Shown piece after piece: positions 3,176 to 40,085 of a stretch of DNA of 64,000 bases. Position numbers and translations under genes: made by a program. This DNA comes from Escherichia coli. GTDB taxonomy: Bacteria; Pseudomonadota; Gammaproteobacteria; Enterobacterales; Enterobacteriaceae. Where the stretch lies: the NCBI RefSeq assembly GCF_002854065.1, contig NZ_CP024147.1; one strand, written 5' to 3'. Below the pieces are notes generated by a model. It saw nothing but the letters and a program-made list of their open reading frames with translations, did not search any database and was not told where the DNA came from. How positions within the stretch are numbered: position 1 is the stretch's first letter; every line of letters starts with the position of its first letter.

Positions 3176-3559
3176 ATGCGTGATATTCAGATGGTTCTTG
3201 AGCGTTGGGGAGCGTGGGCGGCTAATAATCATGAAGATGTGACCTGGTCGTCCATTGCCGCCGGTTTTAAGGGATTAATTCCTTCAAAAGTAAAATCTCG
3301 CCCGCAATGTTGTGACGATGACGCGATGATCATTTGCGGGTGCATGGCCCGTCTGAAAAAGAACAACAGCGATTTGCACGATTTATTAGTAGATTATTAT
3401 ATAGTCGGTATGACATTCATGTCACTGGCAGGTAAGCATTGCTGCTCTGATGGTTATATCGGGAAAAGGTTACAAAAGGCTGAGGGCATAATTGAAGGGA
3501 TGTTAATGGCATTAGATATCCGGTTAGAGATGGATATCGTTGTTAATAACTCTAATTAA
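3176..3559 (+). CDS. quuD: Late-gene antiterminator Q (QuuD-like, 127 aa)
   Basis: [24 protein letters not shown]... matches remembered DLP12 QuuD; start taken at second Met of the track ORF. Confidence 0.85.
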
Positions 3560-3747: not shown

Positions 3748-4830
3748 TTAGAACTGGTAAACCATACCTACAGCAACGATATCATCGGTAGCAACGCCAG
3801 ATGCTTTCGTGAAATCGCTCTTATCAATCAGGTTGATTTTGTAGTCAACAAAAGTGGACATATTTTTGTTGAAGTAATAGGTTGCACCTACATCAACATA
3901 TTCAACCAGGTCCTGATCACCCCAAACACCCAAGTCTTTTCCTTTAGAATGCAGGTAAGCAACGGATGGACGCAGGCCGAAGTCGAACTGATATTGTGCA
4001 ACAGCTTCGAAGTTTTGTGCTTTGTTGGCAATATGGTTATTACCAAAAACAGTCATGTTCTGGGTTTCAGAATAGGTGGTGGCCAGATAGATGTTGTTCG
4101 CATCATATTTCAGACCAGCTGCCCATACTTCAGCATTTTGACCAGAAGCATTCAGACCGTTGTTACCGTAGATAACCTGATTATTAGTGCGATCAGATTT
4201 AGCATAGGTTGCACCCACGCCGAATCCTTCATACTCATAAGTAGTTGAGAAACCGAAACCATCGCCATTAGCTTCAGTTACTTCATTTCGGTCATTTTTG
4301 CCCTGATACTGAGCTGCAAAGTTCAGGCCATCAACCAGACCAAAGAAGTCGTTGTTACGATAAGTTGCAACACCTGTGGTGCGACCAGTCATGAACACAT
4401 CTGTTTGGGTCCAGGTATCGCCACCGAATTCTGGCAGAACGTCAGTCCACGCACCGATGTCGTATGCTACACCGTAGTTACGGCCGTAATCGATTGAGCC
4501 GTAGTCACCGAATTTCAGGCCAGCGAAGGCAAGACGGGTTTTATCTTTGGAGGAACCTTGAGATTCAGCGCGGTTGCCTTTGAATTCATATTCCCACTGA
4601 CCGAAACCAGTCAGTTGATCGTTGATTTGGGTTTCACCTTTGAAGCCAAGACGGGCATAAGTAGTATCACCATCATCTGCATCATTAGAGGAGAAGTAGT
4701 GCTTAGCATTAACTTTCCCGTACAGATCCAGCTTGTTACTGTCTTTATTATAAATTTCAGCTGCCTGAGCAGACATCGCCATCAGTACTGATGCAGCTAC
4801 AGCAGAAATTGCCACTGTTAATTTTTTCAT
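3748..4830 (-). CDS. nmpC: Outer-membrane general porin NmpC/OmpD-like, apparently intact (360 aa)
   Basis: Signal peptide [23 protein letters not shown], porin beta-barrel sequence ending in C-terminal F; uninterrupted here (K-12 copy carries IS5). Confidence 0.9.
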
Positions 4831-5619: not shown

Positions 5620-6116
5620 TGCCTCCATCATTACGAAAAGCTGTTGCTGCTGCTATTGGTGGCGGGGCTATTGCTATAGCATCTGTGTTAATCACTGGCC
5701 CAAGTGGTAACGATGGTCTGGAAGGTGTGAGACATAATCCTTACAAAGACATAGTTGGTGTATGGACTGTATGTTACGGGCATACAGGAAAAGACATCAT
5801 TCCCGGTAAAACGTATACCGAAGCAGAGTGCAAAGCCCTCCTGAATAAAGACCTTGCCACTGTCGCCAGACAAATTAACCGGTACATCAAAGTCGATATA
5901 CCGGAAACAACGCGCGGCGCTCTTTACTCGTTCGTCTACAACGTGGGTGCTGGCAATTTCAGAACATCGACGCTTCTTCGCAAAATAAACCAGGGTGATA
6001 TTAAAGGCGCATGTGATCAGCTACGGCGCTGGACATACGCTGGCGGTAATCAATGGAAAGGACTGATGACTCGCCGTGAGATTGAGCGTGAAGTCTGTTT
6101 GTGGGGGAAACAATGA
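5619..6116 (+). CDS. rrrD: SAR endolysin / lysozyme (RrrD-like, 165 aa)
   Basis: N-terminal signal-anchor-release segment [18 protein letters not shown] followed by lysozyme domain; ATGA overlap with holin stop. Confidence 0.9.
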
Positions 6117-6571
6117 GCAGAGTAACCGCGATTATCTCCGCTCTGGTTATCTGCATCATCGTCTGCCTGTCATTGGCTGTTAATCATTACCGTGATAACG
6201 CAATCGCCTACAAAGAGCAGCGCGATAACAAGGCCAGTGAACTGGAGAAGGCGAACGCCACCATCGCTGACATGCGGAAGCGTCAACGTGATGTAGCAGA
6301 ACTCGACGCAAGATACACAAAGGAGCTTGCTGATGCTAACGCGACTATCGAAAGTCTCCGTGCTGATGTTTCTGCTGGGCGTAAGCGCCTGCAAGTCGCC
6401 GCCACCTGTGCAAAGTCAACGACCGGAGCCAGCGGCATGGGCGATGGAGAAAGCCCAGGACTTACAGCAGATGCTGAACTCAATTATTACCGTCTCCGAA
6501 GTGGAATCGACAAGATAACCGCGCAGGTTAACTACCTGCAGGAATACATCAGGACGCAATGCCTGAAATAA
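6113..6571 (+). CDS. rzpD: Spanin inner-membrane subunit Rz (i-spanin)
   Basis: N-terminal TM helix then coiled-coil-rich periplasmic domain; ATGA overlap with endolysin; diverges from K-12 RzpD. Confidence 0.85.
6327..6518 (+). CDS. rzoD: Spanin outer-membrane lipoprotein Rz1 (o-spanin), embedded in the +1 frame of Rz
   Basis: Lipobox LLGVSAC followed by proline-rich segment [13 protein letters not shown]; wholly inside Rz in another frame; exact start uncertain. Confidence 0.7.
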
Positions 6572-6602
6572 TTTTTTTGCAAATCACAAAGTCCATTTAA
6601 TG

Positions 6603-6628
6603 AGCCTCGCGATGCGGGGCTTTTTTTA
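6603..6628 (+). terminator. Rho-independent terminator after the lysis cassette
   Basis: Hairpin CCTCGC-gat-GCGGGG followed by CTTTTTTT. Confidence 0.5.
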
Positions 6629-6866
6629 CATCTGAATTTCACAGCGCATCTCACGCGCATATTACATCACCCGAGCCTTTCAGAAAGTTGAGCCTGAGAA
6701 CTGCCGTATATGGTGGCGACCATCTCGGGGCGGCTTTTCTGTGAGACAGGCTCACTTTCTAAAAGGTAAAGACGCTATGAACCAATTAGAAGAAAAGCTT
6801 CAAAGAATGATTTCCTTATACAAGGAAGATAACTGCCAAAAAGTTCCTTAAAACATCGCAGAGTTA

Positions 6867-7265
6867 ATGGAATTGGCAAGTGAATTTTCTGGCATGCTTA
6901 AGTCGTCAGGTGTTCGGTCAGCGTTCTTTGTTGAAATGCTGATGCACGGCGGACTTATGGCAACAATGAGACGTGTAATGGAAGACCAGAGAAAAGAACC
7001 TCCTCAGGTATACGTTTTGTCATCGAAGAAAACTGGGCTAACCAAAATTGGGTATTCATCCAACATTCCACAACGCATCAAATCGCTTGGCAACTCTGGA
7101 CCAGACTGCTTGAAGCTTGAGTGCCTGATCCCTGGTGGAAGAGAAACTGAAAACATGCTTCATCGCAAATTTGCCGCAAAGAGAAAGCACGGTGAATGGT
7201 TCGCCCTGTCCAAGGATGACATTGAGGGATTGAAATCTGTAGCGATTACTTCTGATGGCTATTAA
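6867..7265 (+). CDS. T5orf172 / GIY-YIG-like domain protein (132 aa), prophage accessory gene
   Basis: Motif block VYVLSSKKTGLTKIGYSSNIPQRIKSL...ENMLHRKFAAKRKHGEWFAL resembles the T5orf172 (MUG113) fold; N-terminal 45 aa unassigned. Confidence 0.5.
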   Translation: MELASEFSGMLKSSGVRSAFFVEMLMHGGLMATMRRVMEDQRKEPPQVYVLSSKKTGLTKIGYSSNIPQRIKSLGNSGPDCLKLECLIPGGRETENMLHRKFAAKRKHGEWFALSKDDIEGLKSVAITSDGY

Positions 7266-7943
7266 TGCTTGTTTAGAGCAATTTTCATAACAACTCTTCA
7301 TTACAAAGCCCATCTACTGGTGGGCTTGATAATGAAACCGTGATTTACATCCCCACAATCCGGGTATGTAAAAGATAGTTCAGGCGAGAACGGATTTAAC
7401 TAAATCTGTGCGCCACCAGTTAACGGCAGTACCACGAAACAACCCAAGCCAGTAAGTGGGGAAATAACACCGGCAGCCACTGAAAGATGAACCTCCTGCC
7501 TTATGGCAAAAAAGATTCTTTGTGGTGGCGGACTGATGGAAAGACATCCTAATTTCAGCCAAACATTGAAGGAGTTGTTATGTCAGCAGAAGGTTTCAAT
7601 AACCCATCAAAATTCCGGGATGAGTGGGATAGCAGCGTAAAGAGTAAGTGATGCCATCACAAAAGCCATTCCCTACAGAGTGGCTTTGATAATGGCTTAT
7701 ACCCTACACGGGATAACTTAACTGATATCCTTTTTAAAGGATAAAGGTATTCAAGCCTGACACATCATGCGCTGTATCGTCGCCGTATTCCCGTATTAAC
7801 AGAGACCGTAGCCCGACGGGGAACTCCTTCTGCGCGAGTGTGCGGGAATAATCAAAAACGATGCACACCGGGGTTACCGGGTACACATATTTCATCATGC
7901 CAGCGAGTCCGGTTCTGGCACGGAAGAAACCGGACGTTATGAT

Positions 7944-8354
7944 TTAGTGCGGAAATATTTGTGTAGTGTTCTGAATGTTCTCAGTAAAGAGTAATGAATT
8001 ATCAAAGGTATAGTAATACCTTTTGTTTTCGTGGATATTTGTAATCCATCTGAAAACCCCTGCTGTAGCAAGATTTTTCCTGTATTCGTAAAATGATAAC
8101 TCTCCTGATTTGAATCCTTTTAATGTGGTTTCTATAAGGCATTTATTTTTTGAAAATCTTACATTTACAACCTTACCCTGTCCTTTTATTAAAACCGTAT
8201 TATCGTTTTCAAGAACAAGATGAATATTCTCTGTGGCTAAATAGTAAATGTAATGTGAGACATTGTGACGTTTTAGTTCAGAATAAAACCAGTGATAGTT
8301 TAAATTATTTCGCACTTTATCGAATATTTGTTTAAAAATGGCAACCTGAGCCAT
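7944..8354 (-). CDS. Uncharacterised AT-rich prophage protein (136 aa from second Met; possibly YbcV-like)
   Basis: ORF in low-GC segment; length and position relative to the cos/nu1 region resemble DLP12 ybcV; no motif recognised. Confidence 0.45.
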
Positions 8355-8411
8355 TGTAGTACCTTCCATGTGATATGAAGGTACCTAGTCTGCACGATTA
8401 TCTAAATTGCT

Positions 8412-8645
8412 TCAATCTGGTCTGACCTGCTTTCTGAGCAATTCAGTAATGTCACTCTTTTCTTTGTTTGCTTCAGGCGAAACTCTTTTTTCTGAGCACA
8501 GTCTTCGGCGGCAGGCTTCAATGACCCAGGCTGAGAAATTCCCGGACCCTTTTTGATCAAGAGCGATGTTAATTTGTTCAATCATTTGGTTAGGAAAGCG
8601 GATGTTGCGGGTTGTTGTTCTGCGGGTTCTGTTCTTCGTTGACAT
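8412..8645 (-). CDS. Small ribbon-helix-helix-type DNA-binding protein (YlcI/DUF3950-like, 77 aa)
   Basis: Basic N-terminus then NIRFPNQMIEQINIALDQKGSGNFSAWVIEACRRRL, consistent with RHH/Arc-like fold; adjacent to cos as ylcI is in DLP12. Confidence 0.5.
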   Translation of the reverse strand: MSTKNRTRRTTTRNIRFPNQMIEQINIALDQKGSGNFSAWVIEACRRRLCSEKRVSPEANKEKSDITELLRKQVRPD

Positions 8646-8689
8646 GAGGTTGTCCCGTATTCAGTGTCGCTGATTTGTATTGTCTGAAG

Positions 8690-9000
8690 TTGTTTTTACG
8701 TTAAGTTGATGCAGATCAATTAATATGATACCTGCGTCATAATTGATTATTTGACGTGGTTTGATGGCGTAGATGCACGTTGTGACATGCAGATGATAAT
8801 TATTATCATTTTGCGGGTCCTTTCCGGCGATCCGACAGGTTACGGGGCGGCGACCTCGCGGGTTTTCGCTATTTATGAAAATTTTCCGGTTTAAGGCGTT
8901 TCCGTTCTTCTTCGTCGTAACTTAATGTTTTTATTTAAAATACCCCCTGAAAAGAAAGGAAACGACAGGTGCTGAAAACGAACTTTTGGGCCTTTGTCGT
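8690..9000 (+). other. Lambda-type cohesive-end site (cosQ - cosN - cosB); cosN 12-nt overhang sequence GGGCGGCGACCT at about 8845-8856
   Basis: Near-identity to the joined right and left ends of phage lambda as I recall them (…CCGACAGGTTACG|GGGCGGCGACCTCGCGGGTTTTCGCTATTTATGAAAATTTTCCGGTTTAAGGCGTTTCCGTTCTTCTTCGTC…) directly upstream of nu1. Confidence 0.8.
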
Positions 9001-9033
9001 TTCCTTTCTCTGTTTTTGGCCGTGGAATGAACA

Positions 9034-38091: not shown

Positions 38092-38531
38092 TTATGTTGG
38101 CGTTTTCTATTCAGTATAGAAGTCGGAGCGGCTGGGCGAGATGCGGAAGTTCTGGAATGTTTCTTTTTTTGGTGATGGTGAACTGATGGTGCCTGAAGCA
38201 ATTTGGCTACTTTTGCAATGTGACAAGTTATGGCACGGCTGGCTGGTGGCGAAGAATTTTGACGATTGAGGCATGCAGAAAAAACGGGCTCAGCTTCAGT
38301 TGATTAAATGAGGAGTGAGAAGTCCGAAACAGGATTTACTGTATAAATAAACAGCTATTTTGTTGAGGAAGGGTAAGATAACGGCGGGTGCCTGAAGCTT
38401 TCCGGTTTCAGGTTTACTCTGAGGTCTGGAAAGATGAAGCCCCAGGAGATATTTCTATCAACCCTGGGGCTGCCACTCCAAACCAGACAATTTGGATGGT
38501 AGTTCCTTCTTCGCATGGAGGCAATATAAAC

Positions 38532-38684
38532 ATGCTGACGAAATATGCCCTTGTGGCAGTCATAGTGCTGTGTTTGACGGTACTGGGATTTACGCTTCTG
38601 GTCGGAGACTCGCTGTGTGAGTTTACGGTGAAGGAACGTAATATTGAGTTCAGGGCTGTTCTCGCTTACGAACCGAAGAAGTAG
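38532..38684 (+). CDS. hokE: Hok-family membrane toxin, copy 1 (50 aa)
   Basis: [50 protein letters not shown]. Confidence 0.85.
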
Positions 38685-39034
38685 CCGTTGTGCGGGGAGT
38701 AATCCCCGCATATCCGGTTGTCAGGTCAGGATGGTAAGGCACCTGCTTTACACTTTCGCCCGCGGTCAGTGATGGCTGCGGGCGGTTTCGTTTTAAGAGC
38801 AATGATGAGTTTTGCCGACAGAAGTCCGAAACAGGATTCACTGTATAAATAAACAGCTATTTTGCTAAGGAAGGGTAAGATAACGGCGGGTGCCTGAAGC
38901 TTTCCGGTTTCAGGTTAACTCTGAGGTTTGGAAAGATGAAGCCCCAGGAGATATTTCTATCAATCCTGGGGCTGCCACTCCGAACCTGAACAACTCGGAT
39001 GGTAGTCCCTTCTTCGCATGGAGGCAATATAAAC

Positions 39035-39187
39035 ATGCTGACGAAATATGCCCTTGTGGCAGTCATAGTGCTGTGTTTGACGGTGCTGGGATTTACGCTT
39101 CTGGTCGGAGACTCGCTGTGTGAGTTCACCGTAAAGGAACGTAATATTGAGTTTAAGGCTGTTCTCGCTTACGAACCGAAGAAGTAG
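39035..39187 (+). CDS. hokE: Hok-family membrane toxin, copy 2 (50 aa; R42K relative to copy 1)
   Basis: [50 protein letters not shown]. Confidence 0.85.
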
Positions 39188-39964: not shown

Positions 39965-40085
39965 CTGCCTGATGCGCTACGCTTATCAGGCCTACATGGT
40001 CCTGCAATATATTGAATTGGCAAGATTTTTGTAGGCCGGATAAGGCGTTCACGCCGCATCCGGCATGAACGACGCGCACTTTGTC
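39965..40085. repeat. REP (repetitive extragenic palindromic) elements between entD and fepA
   Basis: GCCTGATGCGCTACGCTTATCAGGCCTACA and GTAGGCCGGATAAGGCGTTCACGCCGCATCCGGCA motifs. Confidence 0.5.

Follow-up and report, generated by a model that had tools for sequence, protein, structure and literature searches.

Background

The late leader of phage lambda, the '6S' RNA, runs from pR' to tR', and we know of no conserved fold for it. Phage T7 has intercistronic hairpins that are processed by RNase III, hairpins that act as 3' stabilisers exist as well, the boxB hairpin of lambda carries a GAAAA or GAAGA pentaloop, phage N4 has promoters made of DNA hairpins, and the Rfam family RF03044 (Proteo-phage-1) is reportedly a candidate small RNA (sRNA) of Weinberg et al. 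2017. Here we compare with these systems the interval 7266-7943 of a 64,000-nucleotide stretch (the window) of an Escherichia coli chromosome (contig NZ_CP024147.1, assembly GCF_002854065.1), which lies in a DLP12-like defective lambdoid prophage. The interval is not one element but several, and the explanation that appears rather probable to us is that of a mosaic, mostly untranslated junction of the late operon with three separately conserved functional pieces, namely hairpins, a structured RNA and a microprotein gene.

An original prediction, made from the letters alone, had drawn attention to two similar stem-loops with a 23-codon open reading frame (ORF) between them, and had proposed sRNAs, a small protein, or terminator or attenuator structures for the flanking accessory genes. 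The stem-loops and the ORF were borne out, and the protein and a structured RNA gained support; the latter is the block between the hairpins and not the hairpins themselves. The terminator option fared poorly, as discussed below, and two additional palindromes were lost on inspection: the one placed at 7701-7717 is merely CCC/GGG, which is the level of chance, and nothing palindromic lies at 7880-7910, the actual hairpin there being at 7903-7936 (GTCCGGTT...AACCGGAC).

Results

The folding and covariance checks that had been suggested for the region both gave positive results. The interval folded better than dinucleotide shuffles on both strands (z = -6.1 for the + strand and -7.9 for the - strand, with none of 20 shuffles as good), and pairing was kept among relatives in the hairpin variants and in an RNA family. 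The most conserved part, which the original prediction had not singled out, is a 135-nt block on the + strand (M3, 7414-7548), delimited by conservation and by a covariance model. It was 93-97% identical in P22, L, HK97, HK106, HK620, Sf6, Emek, Chlobot and the Stx2a phage, was found in 1119 of 5426 complete E. coli genomes, and was never annotated in the records, except that the 3' end of rha overlaps its first bases. Rfam scans, of the whole window at gathering thresholds and of 6500-9100 under permissive settings, yielded within the interval only a sub-threshold match to the tail of RF03044 (7443-7478).

Scanning IMG/VR for this tail (AAANAACACCGGCAGCC) disclosed many GC-rich loci, and five of those tested were true RF03044 matches (58-82 bits). 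The Rfam model spans only the first 82 nt (P1, P2 and tail). Past this motif, the Pseudomonas-type loci continue with a variable P3 hairpin, a conserved GGCGGAC and a P4 hairpin with the loop GGAAAGAC or GGGAAGAC, from which a short linker leads to a GC-rich terminator with a U run, the P3/P4 extension being defined in this analysis. We scored the full structure (P1, P2, a pseudoknot between the P2 loop GCCGG and the tail CCGGC, P3 and P4) on 14 Pseudomonas-type sequences: 94.7% of the cells were paired, against 30-44% when the partners were slid, and 17 pairs showed compensatory change. A covariance model (R1) was then built from these 14 loci only, with no enterobacterial sequences, and calibrated in a shortened run, so that its E-values are rough. 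Its sole match in the 64-kb window was 7400-7550 on the + strand, over model positions 1-140 (39.2 bits, E about 3e-10). R1 also matched Sf6, HK022, HK97, HK620, P22 and BTP1 at 31-38 bits, as well as the Stx2a phage, a Salmonella arizonae prophage and a Pantoea prophage; there was no match in phi80, K-12 DLP12, Qin or the enteropathogenic E. coli (EPEC) loci that were fetched.

In the window copy (+ strand), P2 is formed by 7443-7446 and 7457-7460 (CCCA[AGCCAGUAAG]UGGG), and its loop bases GCCAG (7448-7452) can pair with 7470-7474 of the tail strand (7461-7478, GAAAUAACACCGGCAGCC) as a pseudoknot. P3 follows at 7476-7487/7517-7529 (GCCAC-UG-AAAGA ... UCUUU-GUG-GUGGC), then the GGCGGAC linker at 7528-7533 and P4 at 7535-7538/7545-7548 with the loop GAAAGA. 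The copy thus has the P2 hairpin with an AGCCGG-type loop and the 3' strand AAAnAACACCGGCAGCC of the family. The two sides of the pseudoknot change together between families, from GCCGG/CCGGC to GCCAG/CUGGC, and most enterobacterial copies carry CUGGC.

The block shares with RF03044 its 3' strand (GAAAUAACACCGGCAGCC in the window and gaAAaAACaCCGGCAGCC in the consensus), a hairpin loop that pairs with this strand (AGCCAG in the window, AGCCGG in the family) and a setting in phage or prophage late regions. It differs in being richer in AT and in ending with a U-less hairpin instead of an intrinsic terminator. The location is also different: the RNA of Pseudomonas prophages is flanked by a Q-like antiterminator gene (phrog_79), frequently together with a tRNA, and by a holin gene (phrog_126), while the window copy comes after the lysis genes. 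The Pseudomonas-type RNA hence sits where lambda has its late leader, after the Q-like gene and before the holin gene and ending at a terminator; the likeness is one of position, and the window copy, downstream of the lysis genes, does not share it. On these sequence comparisons, 7414-7548 is best filed as a putative structured RNA, a divergent relative of RF03044 that lacks P1 and is extended at the 3' end.

Other readings of the block were tried and set aside. Three ORFs of 21, 45 and 60 codons were rejected, given a stop codon in Chlobot, changes in the length of an A run in Emek and others, and the lack of PHROG matches; a long-range helix (7412-7418/7523-7529) is present in many copies and missing from others. 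Known prophage RNAs did not fit either. By their E2348/69 positions in RIL-seq (ligation and sequencing of interacting RNAs) tables, PasA-D lie in prophage gaps other than that between Rz and terminase, PasB being between tail genes I and J, and PasA and PasC between an esterase gene and a holin gene. AgvB, AsxR and Esr41 had no Rfam match in the interval, the anti-sRNAs AgvB and AsxR being at the Q-S moron site; STnc6000-6030 of BTP1 are absent from the rha-pid gap, and the 'M3 RNA' of phi80 is an oop homologue near cII. A literature search found nothing on RF03044 or on the P4-type hairpin motif described below. Inspected by eye, the RNA shows a likeness of its 5' half (ACGGCAGUACCACGAAACAACCC) to its second half (AGCCAGUAAGUGGGGAAAUAACAC) and to the P2 loop and tail of Proteo-phage-1, and 7423-7478 may be a degenerate tandem duplication. 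In BTP1 (L016 2272-2586), and at the homologous position in P22, the leftward and highly expressed pid gene lies directly past the RNA block and a hairpin of the 2b type; seen from the opposite strand, the block is there downstream of pid, whose terminator it could hold.

The two stem-loops, each of them followed by GATAATG as originally described, are at 7297-7336 (hairpin 1) and 7653-7696 (hairpin 2), both on the + strand. Hairpin 1 is an inverted repeat with 16-nt arms, 88% complementary, and an 8-nt loop; its stem consists of 7 bp, a 2x2 internal loop (5'-CA/5'-GA) and an upper 7 bp (AAGCCCA/TGGGCTT). Hairpin 2, with 19-nt arms that are 79% complementary and a 12-nt loop, is built in the same way with one extra mismatch. 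Together with a variant 2b (GGTTATTGCAGAGGCCA...TGGTCTCGACAATGGC) found in HK620, HK97 and P22, they make up three sequence types of a single architecture (7 bp, a 2x2 loop with 5'-CA on its left side and 5'-GA on its right side in every case, 7 bp and a terminal loop of 8-12 nt), which variant 2b retains through compensatory changes. Among 28 distinct variants, 93.9% of the cells pair, against 25-56% when partners are slid, and 6 of the 14 pairs show changes on both sides. About 45 of the 392 cells are G-U or U-G pairs; because these would be A-C mismatches on the opposite strand, the family points to pairing in + strand RNA.

Members of the family stand closely 3' of + strand stop codons: at 31 nt from that of the GIY-YIG gene, at 1 nt from that of the mini-ORF and at 1 nt from that of hkbL in HK620, and the hairpin of PhiR49_1 overlaps the stop codon of its ORF. 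The hairpin 1 module is also behind the stops of HK620 hkbL, Sf6 gene 65 and a PhiR49_1 ORF. In a divergent Pantoea prophage an M3-like RNA (a covariance model match) is followed by a hairpin which, by eye, shares the CA/GA loop and differs in its upper stem. We conclude that both window hairpins are putative gene-end RNA hairpins; by analogy, they may protect 3' ends or be processed. They resemble the intercistronic RNase III hairpins and 3' stabilisers of the T7 type in having 14-16 bp with a conserved internal loop, in lying between cistrons after stop codons and in the absence of a U run, although their stems are shorter than classical RNase III substrates and there is no sequence relation.

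The 23-codon ORF (MSAEGFNNPSKFRDEWDSSVKSK) occupies 7580-7651 on the + strand, with an AAGGAG Shine-Dalgarno sequence (7569-7574) 5 nt ahead of its ATG. The words 'strongly ribosome-bound' had been used of it on account of this sequence and not of any observation; the proposal of a small protein, on the other hand, gained comparative support. The ORF was present in 34 loci with an identical peptide, in four sequence variants whose three in-ORF differences were all synonymous. A tblastn search of the fetched loci and GenBank phages revealed homologues of 23-27 amino acids (aa) and 48-61% identity in other contexts and genera: MATQGFDNPSKFRDEWDKQAEGK (23 aa) in P22-like E. coli phages, MAVEGSDNPVKFREELDKSIPKK and MAAQGFDNPTQFREELDKSIPKE in Proteus phages, MSLEGSQNPSQFRKEWDESTEQKPASL in an Enterobacter phage and MKSCNATQGFDNPTKFREEWDRQTKEA in Cronobacter phage ES2. 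Six sequences from five genera share eight invariant columns (the initiator Met plus G5, N8, P9, F12, R13, E15 and D17). The P22-like paralogue of 23 codons, whose gene starts 4 nt past orf80 and stops 5 nt short of the small terminase gene, differs from that of the window at 21 of 72 nt, while the core codons 5-17 show three synonymous changes and one conservative one.

The ORF therefore has the marks of a protein-coding small ORF (a Shine-Dalgarno sequence with a start codon, a maintained length and frame, and a bias to synonymous change), and it is probably a real gene, one that we would very much expect to be translated. The peptide MSAEGFNNPSKFRDEWDSSVKSK was not found in PHROGs, NCBIfam or a collection of 15 billion proteins, and 128 of 5426 E. 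coli genomes carry the window version of the cassette. The prophage Qin likewise has very short ORFs (YnfR, of 21 aa, YnfQ, YnfN and GnsB) between Rz-type and ydfO/ybcV-type genes; they have no sequence similarity to MSAEGFNNPSKFRDEWDSSVKSK, and no alignment was obtained between the Qin gap and 7266-7905.

Local blastn against annotated phages resolved the interval into separate modules with sharp borders. After the hairpin 1 module (7297-7340, +) comes an optional module, M2 (7341-7413, +), delimited by local blastn and alignment, which holds a small hairpin at 7344-7372 (TTTACATCCCC/GGGTATGTAAA); it is found in Sf6, HK620 and HK106, and in HK97, phage L and Chlobot some 15 nt take its place. 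M3 is followed by a variable slot (7549-7652, +) that contains a leader, the Shine-Dalgarno sequence and the microprotein gene, and then by hairpin 2 with a short leader (7653-7745, +). The slot is occupied by the mini-ORF in the window, HK544 and Salmonella phage Emek, and by gene 66 (126 aa, phrog_322) in Sf6 and the Stx2a phage; in HK620, HK97, HK106, P22 and Chlobot, 23 nt stand for 7549-7677, that is, for the slot plus the left arm of hairpin 2. In Proteus phage Brookers (L406 701-1172) a microprotein homologue lies directly 5' of a homologue of Sf6 gene 66, so that the slot's two alternative occupants lie side by side there. By alignment, the joints between modules coincide with the putative hairpins, since PhiR49_1 has a single fused hairpin in place of both, with 7299-7652 replaced, and since chimeric hairpins are known in which a left arm of the 2b type is combined with a right arm of the 2a type.

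The end of the interval is of a different nature. According to the alignment with P22-like phages, 7697-7745 (+) is an orphaned leader: in those phages orf80/hkbM (DUF2560) follows it with its Shine-Dalgarno sequence and start, and no ORF comes after it in the window. The block 7746-7943 occurs only beside ybcV-type genes (PhiR49_1, Chlobot and, at 81%, K-12 DLP12) and is probably the downstream untranslated flank of ybcV, including the hairpin at 7903-7936. A 54-codon ORF on the - strand (7734-7898) was treated as non-coding: all the differences in it are amino acid-changing, and it carries a stop codon in two loci. We also discarded a possible pairing of 7286-7296 with 7572-7582, which comprises the ribosome-binding site and start codon of the mini-ORF. 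Although all 11 nt are complementary (about 0.05 such cases would be expected by chance, by our estimate), this complementarity is probably fortuitous, since it is confined to loci with the GIY-YIG upstream module and is not conserved.

The last 18 nt of the M3 block (GACTGATGGAAAGACATC, 7531-7548), which include P4, proved to be distributed well beyond it. They were present in at least 120 IMG/VR contigs, about 40 of which, among the matches listed, are unrelated to lambdoid phages; in the latter the sites are beside tRNAs, inside transfer-messenger RNA (tmRNA) genes of phage contigs of about 93 kb, or in other structured regions. In 298 Gb of bacterial genomes there were 31 matches, against an estimated nine or so expected by chance, and about a dozen of them were prophage copies of the RNA family. 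Near-matches led to the general motif UGACA-GCNNG-GAAAGA-CNNGC, and an unbiased scan with the four stem positions free returned at least 121 instances (the figures that follow are for the matches listed). Both free pairs were complementary in 120 of these 121, with 14 different combinations, while about 14% would be expected by chance according to our estimate. The motif is present in the late operons of P22, HK97 and HK022 and in phages of unrelated hosts.

With regard to its surroundings, 24 of the 121 instances lie 4-9 nt 5' of a tRNA gene on the same strand, whereas no opposite-strand tRNA was found within 100 nt of any of them. About eight others are, by eye, 22-46 nt (mostly 22-31) upstream of a Shine-Dalgarno sequence plus ATG, and P4 has this same spacing from the mini-ORF (31 nt) and, in Sf6, from gene 66 (29 nt). 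We considered whether UGACA followed by a -10 box could be a sigma-70 promoter and rejected this reading, as the spacing is inconsistent and a -10-like hexamer ending 0-3 nt upstream is only modestly enriched (16% of instances, 5.6% of random positions). Rfam 15 has no family that matches the motif at the motif sites. The GGAAAGAC hairpin was compared by eye with the hammerhead, hepatitis delta virus (HDV)-like and hairpin ribozymes and with conserved region I (CR-I) of RNase P, with no consistent fit; an apparent likeness to CR-I was noted.

From its sequence and placement, the P4-type hairpin looks like a hairpin of unit starts. Such a signal could be a self-contained element of RNA or single-stranded DNA, with a part in 5'-end formation or processing of a leader, in modification of the polymerase, or in recognition as a hairpin promoter. 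The elements boxB/nut of lambda, put of HK022 and the N4 hairpin promoters are alike in being short hairpins with a purine-rich conserved loop and a variable stem; they also share the fixed short distance upstream of a transcribed unit, and P4-type copies, too, occur several to a phage genome. The P4-type loop GAAAGA is however a hexaloop and not a pentaloop, and the motif differs from boxB/nut in having no boxA, in occurring in phages of very different hosts and in being found inside phage tmRNA genes. We know of no partner protein for it. That 7531-7548 is a copy of a pan-phage, host-independent signal marking the starts of tRNA and mRNA units, around which the Proteo-phage-1 and M3 RNAs are built, is a tentative proposal that we think somewhat doubtful.

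Some occurrences of the motif deserve mention in their own right. In the tmRNA genes of the phage contigs of about 93 kb (L028 7992-8376; L031, L043, L048 and L063), an exact GACTGATGGAAAGACATC is at the expected site of pseudoknot 1, 5' of the tag frame, and the contigs L272 and L283, from bacterial metagenome-assembled genomes, likewise have tmRNA genes with GACTGATGGAAAGACATC. In two other contigs of this kind, one titled Parcubacteria and the other 'bacterium', it lies about 100 nt 3' of a 16S rRNA gene (L262 2347-2364 and L279 5914-5931). In L284, L257 and L282 the sequence is in a structured-looking region in which Rfam did not call RNase P. A gut-phage contig with the motif (L296) also carries a gut-2 RNA, a type-P5 twister and a type II hammerhead (771-818, 3253-3307 and 3780-3844).

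Within the rightward late operon, the interval has the lysis cassette on one side and the packaging genes on the other, and it faces two leftward accessory genes. The genes leading up to it are quuD, an ompC/nmpC-type porin gene (3748-4830, -), essD (from 5404), rrrD (from 5619), Rz (6101-6571) and the GIY-YIG gene (6867-7265, +); past it come a ybcV-like gene (DUF1398; 7944-8369, -), a YlcI/YnfO gene (ylcI; 8412-8645, -), a truncated nohD, tail-fibre remnants and IS1. The GIY-YIG gene is a trailing moron, that is, an add-on accessory gene behind the lysis cassette, and the convergent ybcV and ylcI precede the terminase, so that the flanks had been fairly labelled as accessory genes. In none of the 25 genomes that, among the matches listed, carry the whole interval at 99.9-100% identity did the NCBI Prokaryotic Genome Annotation Pipeline (PGAP) place a gene within 7266-7943.

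Other features were recorded in the window. The match of the GIY-YIG ORF to phrog_4284 begins only at position 40 of the 171 in the profile, and the HK106 homologue of this ORF has 162 aa; for this reason the window copy may be shortened at its N-terminus, or its start codon may be further upstream. At 9034-9858 a single 274-codon ORF fuses the N-terminus of a small terminase of the Nu1 type with a segment of an Ig-like domain, where PGAP gives a truncated terminase pseudogene and a separate Ig-like protein. A full-length match to Rfam IS009 (229 bits, 10578-10776) lies within a tfaD-like tail-fibre assembly gene (10235-10819). Two matches to the sok antitoxin RNA, in tandem as hok/sok-type loci, and one to the sRNA ES036 (CssrF) were found at 38386-38540, 38888-39043 and 39988-40029, and there is a tRNA at 365-438.

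Discussion

Taken as a mosaic junction of the late operon, the interval could work as follows. The gene-end hairpins would form on the + strand late transcript directly past stop codons and, by analogy with the intercistronic RNase III-type hairpins of T7, would be structures that protect or process 3' ends rather than terminators; as shared sequence, they may double as joints for the exchange of modules. The RNA of 135-150 nt would be an enterobacterial relative, in reduced form, of the Proteo-phage-1 RNA found in Pseudomonas prophages, keeping the P2 hairpin and pseudoknot, the AAAUAACACYGGCAGCC strand, a variable P3 and a terminal P4. We infer that it is made within the late transcript from pR' and acts at the RNA level. 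P4 would head the following cassette at its 5' end, just as this motif stands before tRNAs and ORFs in many phages, and the 23-codon gene, an insertion that separates P4 from the terminal hairpin, would encode a conserved microprotein.

Several observations weigh against this interpretation. The RF03044 tail match in the window has 19.8 bits (E=1.8), under the gathering score of 42 bits. The window RNA has no P1: the family hairpin is CCAGG...CCUGG with an inner GNN-UUCG-NNC, R1 places non-pairing bases there, and the enterobacterial 5' region is variable. The window copy has CCGGC and hence one C-A mismatch in the pseudoknot. With enterobacterial copies that are 93-97% identical, recent exchange could account for the conservation, and these copies show minimal covariation among themselves; likewise, the hairpin variants amount to three lineages, so that their covariation counts are not counts of independent events, which are few. 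No promoter was predicted in the window for the RNA or the mini-ORF, and in the BTP1 prophage transcriptome (Salmonella D23580) no non-coding RNA is annotated between rha and pid, the site of the homologous block. Finally, late transcription may be rare, because the prophage is defective.

The main alternative is that the two hairpins are transcription terminators, perhaps bidirectional ones, which insulate the rightward late genes and morons from the leftward ybcV and ylcI, the rest being spacer. Their position directly past stop codons, in an interval that parts convergent genes, would suit this role. Moreover, a canonical GC-rich hairpin with a U run occupies the place after P4 in the Pseudomonas relatives, hairpin 2 is followed on the minus strand by UUUUGUGAU, and the annotators of phage L put a leftward terminator in the conserved block, at what our scan found as the same weak site (7513-7492). 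Yet, while stems are present as in intrinsic terminators, the + strand tails GAUAAUGAAACC and GAUAAUGGCUUA have no U tract, the terminator scan called neither hairpin, and a U run is missing from both strands of variant 2b. The wobble pairs suit the + strand only. In HK620, HK97 and Sf6 the late genes on either side of the hairpins point the same way, so that the hairpins would be read through there. We therefore regard termination as an unlikely function.

A role at the DNA level only, as palindromic boundary or linker sequences or as protein-binding sites that promote module exchange among lambdoid phages, seems slightly less likely still. The mosaic breakpoints at the hairpins speak for it, together with the fused and chimeric forms, in which recombination apparently took place within the loop, and with the boundary sequences annotated elsewhere in Sf6. 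Nevertheless, a palindromic operator would conserve the arms and not the pairing, whereas here the arms vary and pairing is kept, with many G-U pairs that are asymmetric in duplex DNA; and the CA/GA loop, itself asymmetric, is conserved in all types, the divergent Pantoea copy included. Such a role is in any case compatible with one in RNA too. As to whether the interval is decaying junk, made of gene remnants and of chance ORFs and hairpins, the setting would allow it, in a DLP12-like defective prophage with truncated terminase and tail genes and an IS1, and the 54-codon ORF, the orphaned leader and the unconserved 11-nt complementarity are what it would predict. However, the core block, the hairpins and the microprotein are found in viable phages (P22, HK97, HK620, Sf6, HK544 and Emek) and across genera, and the fold z-scores are of -6 to -8. 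For the interval as a whole we give this explanation very little credence: it is largely refuted for 7297-7696, and is the best description of 7697-7943.

Conclusions

Few phages have been studied as thoroughly as P22, HK97, HK022, HK620 and Sf6, and the conserved block is present in a fifth of complete E. coli genomes; even so, the structured RNA and the 23-aa gene were unannotated in every record examined. The RNA now links an orphan Rfam candidate of Pseudomonas prophages to genetically tractable phages, and the microprotein is a conserved addition to the poorly charted small proteins of phages. The hairpin family offers a concrete sequence basis for the sites at which modules are swapped in the gap between Rz and terminase, and the hairpin motif found beside phage tRNAs could bear on the expression or maturation of tRNA arrays. 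If the RNA acts on late transcripts, through their processing, their stability or the behaviour of the polymerase, there would be an extra RNA layer in the control of lambdoid late genes.

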